From a bacterium (GTDB lineage: Bacteria; Patescibacteriota; Saccharimonadia; Saccharimonadales; Saccharimonadaceae), in contig JAKQOF010000047.1 of the NCBI GenBank assembly GCA_029565375.1, positions 1 to 31,795 of the forward strand: 31,795 nt of DNA. Direction: 5' to 3'. Each line of letters starts with the position of its first letter. The stretch's first letter is position 1. Below, in pieces: positions 24,857-26,991 of the stretch. A model generated the notes under the pieces. It did no database searches, was not told the origin of the DNA, and saw nothing but the letters and a program-made list of their open reading frames with translations. The translations under genes were made by a program, and so were the position numbers.

Positions 24857-24933
24857 TGGTGGGTCCTAGAGGATTCGAACCTCTCACCTCCTCAACGTCA
24901 ATGAGGCGCTCTAGCCAAATGAGCTAAGGACCC
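24857..24933 (-). tRNA. tRNA-Val(GAC)
   Basis: Minus strand GGGTCCT...CCTCA-TT-GAC-GT-TGAGG...TTCGAAT...AGGACCC-A-CCA. Confidence 0.96.
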
Positions 24934-24978
24934 AAGCTCTATACAGGATAGCAAAATAGGGGTGAACAGGCAACAATA

Positions 24979-25179
24979 TGGTATTATAAGCTAGAACAAC
25001 GACGCAGCCCAACCATCTGCCGAGTTCCGTGGGTGCGAGGACGTGCGTAACGTCCCTCATAAGTAAAAGTCCGGTGGAACCGTCTAGCAATCAGCTGGAC
25101 CCGAGACATACAACGAATGGATTTATAGTCATAAACCCGGTCGCTGTGTGTCTTATTTTAATTTAAAAGGAGTAACGAT
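24979..25179 (+). promoter_or_regulatory. thrS promoter and structured 5' leader, T-box-like
   Basis: TGgTATTAT (24979-24987); short hairpin with ACC in its loop (24998-25026); AGTA (25062-25065); GTCCGG-TGGAACC...CTGGAC antiterminator-like fold (25069-25100); long hairpin 25103-25154; SD AAGGAG. Confidence 0.65.
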
Positions 25180-26991
25180 ATGAACGACGAACAACTACAC
25201 GCAATGAGGCACAGCTTGGCGCATATTACGGCAGCTGCCGTGCAGCGACTGTGGCCGGAGGCAAAATTTGGGGTTGGTCCAGTGGTCGAAAATGGCTTTT
25301 ACTACGATATTGACCTTGGTGAGGTTAAAATATCTGACGCGAACTTCGCGAAGATTGAGAAAGAGATGCGGGGGATTATCAATTACGGTGATGATTTTGA
25401 ACGGTTTGAGATGCCAATTGATCAAGCGATCGACTGGGCGCGTGAGAACAATCAGCCGTACAAGGAAGAGCTGCTAAATGACTTGAAACGCTCAGGCACA
25501 ACAGTTGCAAAAGATCTCGACGTGAGCGAACTTGGTCTTGCCGCGGACGGAGAAGCGGCAGTAGAGAACGTGTCTTTCTACAAAAACGGCAACTTTGTTG
25601 ACCTTTGTCGTGGGCCACATGTACATAACACGAAAGATGTAGGTGTATTTAAGCTTCTACGTGTCGCTGGAGCGTACTGGCGAGGGAAAGAGACGAACCC
25701 TCAAATGCAGCGTTTGTATGGCGTTGCGTTTGCAACCCAAGAAGAACTTGATCAGTATCTTGAGCGCCTGGAACAGGCCAAGCTTCGCGACCACCGCAAG
25801 CTTGGTAAAGAGCTTGACCTTTACACTGTTTCGCCACTTGTCGGGGCAGGATTACCACTCTTTACACCGCGCGGGACAGTTCTTCGAGATATATTCTCAC
25901 AGTATTCCAACCAATTACGACAAGCTTTTGGTTTTGAAAAAGTGTGGACGCCTCATATTACAAAAACATCTCTCTACGAAACATCTGGGCATTGGGCAAA
26001 GTTTGGTGATGAACTGTTTTTGGTCACCAGCCAGGAAACTGACGACAAGATGGCATTGAAGCCAATGAACTGCCCTCATCATACGCAGATATATGCGAGT
26101 AAACCACGCAGCTATCGCGATTTACCTGTACGGTTTCTGGAAACAACAACTGATTATCGTGATGAGAAGACGGGTGAGTTGGGTGGGCTGAACCGTGTAC
26201 GTTCACTAACTCAAGATGATAGCCATGTATTCTGTCGTTCTGATCAGATCGAAAACGAGATTAATAGTCTGCTTTCTAGCGCTCGTGAATTATATGGCAC
26301 AATTGATATGAATTTGAGAGTTCGTCTGTCATATCGTGACAGTGGCGATGGTTATTTGGGTGACCAATCTCTCTGGGACTCAGCTCAAGCCCAATTAAAG
26401 TCAGCTGTTCTTTCAAATGATTTGGAATATTTTGAGGTCGAAGGTGAAGCGGCATTTTACGGTCCTAAAATCGATTTTATGGCAATGGATGCAATAGGTC
26501 GTGAGCATCAAGTTGCGACAGTGCAGCTAGATTTTGTGCAACCTGGTCGATTTGGTCTTGAGTACAACGATAATGAGGGCAACTCTCAAACGCCAGTCAT
26601 GATACATTGCGCGCTCCTGGGCTCGATCGAGCGATTTTTGAGTGTGTATATTGAGCACACCGGTGGTTGGTTTCCACTATGGGCTGCACCTGAGCAGATT
26701 CGAATCCTTACGATTAACGACACCGTTCTTGACTACGTGGAGGAGATTAAACAGGTGCTCACAGGCGTTGTATTGATGACACCAGTGAAGTATAACGAAT
26801 TACGGTACACAGTCGACAGCCGCAACGAATCACTTGGCAAAAAAATCCGAGAGGCGACATCGTGGAAGATACCTGTACAACTTATTATTGGACAACAAGA
26901 TAAGGATGATAGGCAAGTGAGCGTGCGAACTCAGGATGGTGAAACGAAAGTATCTCTTGACGCCCTTGCGGATTATTTAAAGCAGGTGTAA
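25180..26991 (+). CDS. thrS: Threonine--tRNA ligase (lacks N-terminal TGS domain)
   Basis: RHSLAH, GFYYD, DLCRGPH, GAYWRG, RDHRKLG, LKPMNCP, FYGPKID, TVQLDF, GSIERF. Confidence 0.98.
   Translation: MNDEQLHAMRHSLAHITAAAVQRLWPEAKFGVGPVVENGFYYDIDLGEVKISDANFAKIEKEMRGIINYGDDFERFEMPIDQAIDWARENNQPYKEELLNDLKRSGTTVAKDLDVSELGLAADGEAAVENVSFYKNGNFVDLCRGPHVHNTKDVGVFKLLRVAGAYWRGKETNPQMQRLYGVAFATQEELDQYLERLEQAKLRDHRKLGKELDLYTVSPLVGAGLPLFTPRGTVLRDIFSQYSNQLRQAFGFEKVWTPHITKTSLYETSGHWAKFGDELFLVTSQETDDKMALKPMNCPHHTQIYASKPRSYRDLPVRFLETTTDYRDEKTGELGGLNRVRSLTQDDSHVFCRSDQIENEINSLLSSARELYGTIDMNLRVRLSYRDSGDGYLGDQSLWDSAQAQLKSAVLSNDLEYFEVEGEAAFYGPKIDFMAMDAIGREHQVATVQLDFVQPGRFGLEYNDNEGNSQTPVMIHCALLGSIERFLSVYIEHTGGWFPLWAAPEQIRILTINDTVLDYVEEIKQVLTGVVLMTPVKYNELRYTVDSRNESLGKKIREATSWKIPVQLIIGQQDKDDRQVSVRTQDGETKVSLDALADYLKQV

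Follow-up and report, generated by a model that had tools for sequence, protein, structure and literature searches.

Positions 24994-25165 of contig JAKQOF010000047.1, from a Saccharimonadaceae genome (assembly GCA_029565375.1), hold what we take, with a probability of about 0.88, to be a T-box-type sensor of tRNA-Thr upstream of thrS. T-boxes are a model for RNA-RNA recognition of tRNA and a target for antibiotics. All coordinates refer to the window, by which we mean the whole 31,795-nt stretch that was analysed. The element lies in the 246-nt spacer that separates tRNA-Val(GAC) (24857-24933, opposite strand to thrS) from thrS, whose open reading frame (ORF; 25180-26991, 603 aa) carries tRNA_SAD, class II core and anticodon-binding domains by Pfam. 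The host genome is ~0.71 Mb in size (completeness 91%), and the nearest public relatives of its thrS come from metagenome-assembled genomes named Candidatus Saccharibacteria or Saccharimonadales and from the complete genome of Ca. Saccharibacteria bacterium TM7i. The leader most likely acts by transcription attenuation, and it is a new architectural variant of T-box, outside the Rfam family RF00230 as modelled and outside the translational class II. Its structure and conservation, the match between codon and gene, the match between bulge and discriminator base, the strand common to both folds and the energetics were all computed directly. An earlier note, made by reading the letters of the window, had proposed that this bacterium of the Candidate Phyla Radiation carries a miniaturised Thr T-box whose Stem I is ultrashort and whose specifier sits in the terminal loop, and every computational test that we ran supports this proposal.

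A conserved and covarying antiterminator precedes thrS

We gathered thrS loci from 40 relatives, 28 of which gave usable leaders. The heptamer TGGAACC lies 105-141 nt before the start codon in 17 of the 28 and at -78 in one more. The leader is strongly conserved in a MAFFT alignment, and RNAalifold independently returned four-pair basal and four-pair upper Stem I helices, a small hairpin, and a two-helix element around the heptamer, in which GUCCGG pairs with CCG(A)GAC and encloses a 7-bp hairpin directly after the heptamer. This is the canonical order of a T-box antiterminator: helix A1, the 7-nt bulge UGGNACC, and helix A2. In an 18-sequence alignment 94.7% of cells were paired, compared with 84.1% after shuffling and 24-40% when the partners were slid.

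A covariance model built from the leaders (135 positions, 28 pairs) has a single match in this genome, at 24994-25109 with 112.9 bits. It also matches in 81 of 151 genomes of the order, in 108 of 151 genomes of the class, and in 14 sampled genomes from other Patescibacteria classes. There is nearly always one strong match per genome; apparent tandem matches in one genome (G148) proved to be one element interrupted by a stretch of N. We aligned 93 order-level matches to the model, with 91 complete elements among the counts given below. The gene downstream is thrS in all of the aligned matches with enough sequence, one match being at a contig end.

The 93-leader alignment provides the covariation check over thrS leaders that the earlier note had suggested. 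Altogether 93.6% of its cells are paired, versus 75.9% in shuffled and 23-40% in slid controls, and 28 of 31 pairs change on both sides, with covariation in every helix. All eight Watson-Crick pairs of Stem I change on both sides while 98-100% of cells stay paired; five of six pairs covary in A1 and seven of seven in A2; and in the hairpin at 25037-58 all seven modelled pairs change on both sides, with 81-92% of cells paired. An independent mutual-information scan recovered the modelled helices and, searched for further long-range pairs, yielded none beyond them. The columns at the 3b.3n position of the Stem I kink-turn (K-turn; 25003/25021) covary in this alignment without standard pairs, as C.C, U.G, A.G and A.A.

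These data also refine the structure drawn in the earlier note. The hairpin that it described does exist, at 25001-25023, and has the tandem G-A pairs as well as ACC in its terminal loop, the codon being followed by A25015. Its AAC/GUU stem has to be redrawn, as the actual C-stem is GAAC 24994-97 / GUUC 25024-27 and AAC is a 3-nt bulge. Finally, its closing helix GUCCGG/CUGGAC performs no better than chance (73.5% paired versus 74.3% shuffled, with one pair changing on both sides in the 93 leaders); CUGGAC (25095-25100) is really the 3' strand of A2.

The apical codon follows the downstream synthetase gene

The specifier occupies a fixed loop position and reads ACC in 76, ACU in 11 and ACG in 4 of the 91 complete elements; with ACA, which occurs in another class, all four Thr codons are seen and no other codon. 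A purine follows the specifier throughout, and the apical loop is 9 nt long in 85 of the 91. The bulge starts with UGGA in 91 of 91 elements and is UGGAACC in full in 82. Conservation of ACC and UGGA in orthologous leaders, on which the earlier note had staked its reading, was thus found as Thr codons only and an invariant UGGA. The genome has three tRNA-Thr genes, one for anticodon CGU in the window and those for GGU and UGU on contig C109. Since all three end in U73 and an encoded CCA, UGGA is complementary to the tRNA-Thr 3' end, and on this point the earlier note was right, the full bulge being UGGAACC at 25075-81.

Weak secondary matches of the covariance model in other genomes led us to leaders of two further synthetase genes. 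Like the thrS leader, these have the K-turn, the ultrashort Stem I, the apical codon, the discriminator and the terminator type. One set, from other Saccharimonadia (L150-L158; for example G246:C6:55160-55480), precedes ileS (TIGR00392). All nine combine the K-turn with a 4-bp helix and an apical loop of 7 nt, for example CUAUCAA (AUC+A), and 3' of Stem I they keep a Stem II with a GAA/AGUA S-turn, a IIA/B pseudoknot, Stem III and a bulge that reads UGGUACC or UGGAACC; RF00230 scores them at a sub-threshold 20-36 bits. The other set, from another Patescibacteria order (L160-L186; around G382:C3:94540-94900), precedes the gene for glycine-tRNA ligase. Twelve glyS leaders have a UGGAACC bulge, and about 9 of them show a K-turn and short stem with apical GGC+A, such as CUUUGGCAA; they lack a Stem II region and show the canonical terminator overlap. 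The apical codon therefore tracks the regulated synthetase across thrS, ileS and glyS, which is the strongest computational evidence for a specifier role, and these sequence comparisons support reading the apical-loop codon as the specifier.

Two further observations concern the ileS leaders. The 5' strand of their terminator lies within Stem III, with the result that the terminator helix wraps around the entire antiterminator. No leader of the ileS type was seen in the genome of the window.

Antiterminator and terminator compete for one strand

When the nascent RNA is folded up to 25107, its minimum free energy (MFE) structure is the antiterminator (-14.4 kcal/mol). The terminator hairpin at 25103-54 folds at -20.4 kcal/mol, and the full leader prefers A2 plus terminator (-32.6 kcal/mol, versus -26.8 kcal/mol with the antiterminator enforced). 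Enforcing the antiterminator costs the terminator 5 pairs adjoining the U tract. The two folds share GAGAC 25103-07, 5 nt that belong both to the 3' strand of A1 and to the terminator stem. The earlier note had the long hairpin at 25103-25154 with its AUUUU tail, which direct reading shows to be present, and held that this hairpin does not overlap the antiterminator; the latter claim fails because the corrected 3' strand of A1 reaches 25107 and the terminator starts at G25103. The segments that it offered as a competitor pairing instead (25092-25103 and 25138-25146) lie in freely varying parts of the leader among relatives. In 87 of 91 relatives the terminator hairpin begins inside the 3' strand of A1, in 70 of them at position +3. 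These hairpins vary in sequence, have a median of -18.8 kcal/mol, and are directly followed by a U run.

The Shine-Dalgarno sequence at 25166-72 is unpaired in both conformers, in which the thrS start codon is also free, and we saw no conserved anti-Shine-Dalgarno sequence in the leader alignment. A Shine-Dalgarno sequence that is free in both states favours transcription control. In these folding models the leader follows T-box logic: its default state would be OFF, and ON would need stabilisation of A1 from outside.

We infer from these features that the leader binds tRNA-Thr, senses its charging and terminates transcription accordingly, and that the hairpin next to Stem I plays a part as a pseudoknot. 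Transcription would start at about 24994. Stem I, kinked by its K-turn, would offer the apical ACC (25012-14) to the anticodon of tRNA-Thr(GGU), and the pseudoknotted hairpin (25028-58) at the base of Stem I would probably take the 'hub' role of Stem IIA/B. UGGA (25075-78) could then pair with the free U73-C-C-A end of uncharged tRNA-Thr and so stabilise A1. As long as A1 retains GAGAC 25103-07, the bottom 5 terminator pairs would be blocked and the polymerase would continue into thrS. With the tRNA charged or absent, GAGAC would enter the more stable terminator (25103-54) and transcription would stop at the U tract. We lean slightly towards a decision of this kind that is co-transcriptional and irreversible and that uses only the codon hairpin, the small pseudoknot and the 3'-end sensor, with neither elbow contact nor an S-turn 'anticodon pincer'.

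Table 1. Features of the thrS leader and its surroundings, in window coordinates.
Feature	Position	Strand	Basis
Likely extended -10 promoter element (TGg TATTAT)	24979..24987	+	direct reading; inferred
Stem I with K-turn	24994..25027	+	covariation in 93 leaders; RNAalifold
C-stem of K-turn, GAAC / GUUC	24994-97 / 25024-27	+	covariation
K-turn 3-nt bulge, AAC	24998-25000	+	
Tandem G.A pairs, GA / GA	25001-02 / 25022-23	+	GA dinucleotides invariant in relatives
3b.3n position of K-turn, C.C	25003 / 25021	+	
Stem I upper helix, GCAG / CUGC	25004-07 / 25017-20	+	covariation
Stem I apical loop, 9 nt, CCCAACCAU	25008-16	+	
Specifier ACC (Thr; 25012-14) and conserved 3' purine A25015	25012..25015	+	fixed loop position
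Linker CGU, 5' strand of candidate 3-bp pseudoknot helix (Stem IIA-like), partner G25045-G25047	25028..25030	+	one covarying pair; analogy with ileS leaders
Hairpin: GAGGACGU (25037-44), loop GCGUA (25045-49), ACGUC-C-CUC (25050-58)	25037..25058	+	covariation
Purine-rich linker, AUAAGUAAAA	25059..25068	+	comparison with RF00230 consensus
Antiterminator (discriminator)	25069..25107	+	RNAalifold, covariation
Helix A1, GUCCGG / CCG(A)GAC, A25104 bulged	25069-74 / 25101-07	+	
T-box bulge UGGAACC, 7 nt	25075-81	+	
Helix A2, GUCUAGC / GCUGGAC, loop AAUCA	25082-88 / 25094-25100	+	
Intrinsic terminator: hairpin 25103-25154, then U-rich tract AUUUUAAUUU	25103..25165	+	folding
Shine-Dalgarno AAAGGAG (25166-72); thrS start ATG 25180	25166..25182	+	direct reading, folds, thrS domains

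A candidate pseudoknot may stand in for Stem II

The loop of the hairpin at 25037-58 has the consensus RCG(W)WAA / RCGWWAA and resembles the F-box, CCGUCA/CCGUUA (PMC7583486). Its RCG can pair with the CGY directly 3' of Stem I (25045-47 with 25028-30). The variable Y/R pair is U-A in 53 leaders, C-G in 12, U.G in 10 and G-C in 1, with 3 non-pairs, and the remaining two pairs do not vary; leaders with C-G are spread over 9 GTDB families. The resulting H-type topology (S1 5' strand, loop, S2 5' strand, S1 3' strand, A-rich loop, S2 3' strand) is also that of the IIA/B pseudoknot seen before ileS in this class. With one covarying pair and this analogy as its basis, the comparison suggests that the hairpin may be a retained and enlarged Stem IIA/B pseudoknot adjoining Stem I, Stem II itself having been lost; it would then be the sole remnant of the Stem II domain.

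Direct reading of the 93-leader alignment found no GAA/AGUA S-turn between Stem I and the discriminator. The earlier note had pointed to an S-turn-like AGUA motif. The letters are there, at 25062-65, where they sit in the purine linker; as a motif they are not conserved, since relatives have AAGAG, AAGUG or CGAGC. The linker (25059-68) has its counterpart in the AAGUG...AAA purines on either side of Stem III in the RF00230 consensus, with only R-A-G conserved. The window has no Stem III; of 91 relatives, 42 carry an insert of Stem III size and 49 do not.

Points against a T-box and alternative explanations

Standard annotation did not find the element. Rfam at gathering thresholds over the window returned only tRNAs and RNase P, and a permissive Rfam scan of 24930-25200 (271 nt) gave no match at E<=10. 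RF00230 (gathering threshold 93 bits), the Rfam T-box model with which the earlier note had proposed an Infernal check, had no match at the locus or in the whole genome, and likewise none in the thrS leaders of 10 relatives. The MFE fold of the whole leader is unremarkable (z = -1.37), so that folding of the single sequence fails to reveal the element.

Several points weigh against our interpretation. One is that RF00230 is silent on the thrS leader even at E<=10; this model depends on a long Stem I, and its silence is hence not evidence against a T-box. The distal tRNA-elbow platform, the S-turns of Stem I and Stem II and, in the window, Stem III are all missing. Transcriptional T-boxes are held to need elbow contact for fast tRNA capture (PMC7583486), which leaves timely capture by the thrS leader unexplained. 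The terminator of textbook T-boxes uses the 3' strands of both A1 and A2 (PMC7583486), whereas here terminator and antiterminator overlap by only 5 nt, and in many relatives 4 of these pair with uridines of the U tract. With so small an overlap the switch may be leakier than the textbook cases, or differ from them in mechanism. Finally, ~30-45% of sampled relatives, some of the same genus included, have no such leader.

As to this distribution, the leader is missing before thrS (75-82% identical) in the same-genus genomes L007, L011, L012 and L013, and also in 70 of the 151 genomes of the order. Such patchy presence in close relatives suggests that losses are frequent.

Would another kind of regulation account for the leader equally well? 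It could be a feedback operator for threonyl-tRNA synthetase (ThrRS) similar to that of E. coli thrS, with the hairpin at 25037-58 and its loop (U)GCGUA(A) mimicking the anticodon arm of tRNA-Thr(CGU). The loop is RCGU followed by AA in ~60 of 93 leaders and in this form resembles C34-G35-U36-A37-A38 of that tRNA. However, the third 'anticodon' base is A, not U, in roughly a third of the leaders (RCGAUAA or RCGAAA), and U36 is a main identity element for ThrRS. The position of U33 is taken by a purine, and the loop R covaries with the upstream linker (U-A, C-G, U.G, G-C), which fits a pseudoknot and not a free anticodon-like loop. Furthermore, the hairpin lies >100 nt from the Shine-Dalgarno sequence, whereas mimics of the E. 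coli type adjoin the ribosome binding site and have a CGU/UGU-like loop. Since an operator would also not account for three conserved features, namely the UGGAACC bulge, the Stem I Thr codon and the terminator, we consider it very improbable. A constitutive structured leader or terminator, or a leader-peptide attenuator (a 45-codon frame at 25029-25166), with no sensing of the tRNA 3' end in either case, is harder still to credit. The open frame does have adjacent Thr codons, ACA ACG, across the 5' strand of the terminator, but it begins with GTG without a Shine-Dalgarno sequence and is probably spurious, as it is not conserved (relatives read CAUGCGAU there). Conservation resides in paired RNA columns with compensatory changes, and an exact T-box bulge together with gene-matched codons before thrS, ileS and glyS would have to be coincidence.

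A closer alternative accepts the T-box and places its effect mainly on translation or mRNA stability, like that of the ultrashort-Stem I ileS T-boxes of Actinobacteria. Every ultrashort-Stem I T-box described so far is translational (PMC7583486), the overlap between terminator and antiterminator is small, as noted above, and the U tract is only 1-20 nt from the Shine-Dalgarno sequence. What makes this unlikely is that AAAGGAG stays unpaired in either conformer, with no conserved sequence seen that could mask it, and that a stable hairpin followed by a U run has been kept in 87 of 91 leaders despite sequence variation. Transcription attenuation by a T-box thus remains the reading that we prefer.

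Comparison with described T-boxes

Short Stem I's carry the specifier in the apical loop and need a K-turn; with an apical specifier, their only described examples are ileS T-boxes, mostly from Actinobacteria, which act on translation and rely on a Stem II S-turn (PMC7583486). These ultrashort-Stem I ileS T-boxes are known from Sherwood, Grundy and Henkin 2015 and from the M. tuberculosis and N. farcinica structures, and are the 'class II' of TBDB (PMC7583486, PMC7778990). The thrS leader shares with them a very short Stem I with a K-turn at its base, the apical codon with its purine, the lack of an elbow platform, a pseudoknot (here a candidate one) beside Stem I and the UGGNACC discriminator core. 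They differ in that the actinobacterial elements precede ileS, read AUC and sequester the Shine-Dalgarno sequence to control translation, whereas the thrS leader reads ACC and has an intrinsic terminator. The actinobacterial elements also require the S-turn of Stem II (GAA/AGUA, the '5-purine string'), which docks on the codon-anticodon duplex and which the thrS leader lacks; in the latter, unlike in the former, a pseudoknot-like hairpin follows directly after Stem I.

Several traits agree with canonical class I T-boxes (RF00230; B. subtilis tyrS, thrS, glyQS). The gene encodes an aminoacyl-tRNA synthetase and the specifier matches it, Stem I has a K-turn, and the GGUGGNACCG T-box sequence forms a 7-nt bulge between A1 and A2 whose N can pair with the discriminator base of the tRNA. 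AAGNG/AAA purines stand before the discriminator, the terminator competes with the antiterminator, and the default state is predicted to be OFF. In contrast, the Stem I of class I is ~90 nt long, with a specifier bulge, an S-turn and, at its distal end, interdigitated T-loops that bind the tRNA elbow, and that of the thrS leader has 8 bp (34 nt) and an apical specifier. The thrS leader furthermore lacks Stem II and, in the window, Stem III; its terminator shares only the 3' strand of A1 (5 nt), not those of A1 and A2, and RF00230 gives it no score. The minimal T-box studied so far, glyQS of the B. subtilis type, resembles it in having no Stem II S-turn domain, in being transcriptional and in its G/C-rich codon-anticodon pairing (GGC; here ACC). 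Unlike the thrS leader, glyQS keeps a long Stem I with the elbow platform, which is treated as essential in transcriptional T-boxes, as well as Stem III and the full terminator overlap.

An ultrashort Stem I combined with a terminator and no S-turn, conserved class-wide in ultrasmall episymbiotic bacteria, offers a natural and testable counter-example to the long-Stem-I rule, under which an ultrashort Stem I suffices only in the slower T-boxes that act on translation and have a Stem II S-turn. If the leader works as proposed, it would contradict the view that terminator-type T-boxes need a long Stem I for fast tRNA capture, and with 114 nt as far as helix A1 it would be the smallest switch in nature that controls transcription by sensing tRNA. 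In that case the thrS, ileS and glyS leaders of Patescibacteria would represent successive grades in the loss of T-box modules. T-box regulation would extend to Patescibacteria, in a whole group that standard annotation by RF00230 and the TBDB class II model has missed; the latter was searched in Actinobacteria only (PMC7778990). The leader would also make a very compact scaffold for structural and synthetic work. Full-text searches found no paper on T-boxes in Patescibacteria, Saccharibacteria, the Candidate Phyla Radiation or TM7, their coverage being incomplete and a prior description possible, and the papers found to name both riboswitches and Saccharibacteria do not treat T-boxes. Neither the covariance model nor a scan for the UGGNACC pattern turned up a second T-box in this genome. 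That the only T-box found in a 0.7-Mb genome with few regulators guards thrS hints at which supply lines such cells still monitor. On contigs C63 and C99 the UGGNACC pattern occurs in what seems to be coding sequence, with no match to the covariance model.

Promoter and variants of the leader in relatives

A TAnnAT hexamer 5-7 nt 5' of Stem I recurs in relatives. The extended -10 element listed in Table 1 would, as a promoter, likely set the transcription start at G24994 or within a few bases of it. A promoter and terminator scan of the + strand called nothing; for a promoter without a -35 box and a terminator whose stem is long and interrupted, such a scan is uninformative.

Three relatives show the element in other settings. 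A Thr-type leader from another Patescibacteria class (L136:31-1239; 67.8 bits) has ACU as its specifier but does not precede thrS: downstream lie an ORF of 196 aa and one of at least 149 aa, neither with a Pfam or NCBIfam match. In the closest relative fetched (thrS 87% identical; L002:936-1500), the T-box and terminator lie ~435 nt upstream of thrS, with a possible 104-aa ORF (1104-1418) between terminator and gene. Finally, the complete genome of TM7i, a named isolate (CP075337.1; L240:216-336), carries the element at 53.4 bits, with TATAAT 7 nt upstream and internal A.A mismatches in A1, and may serve as an experimental system.

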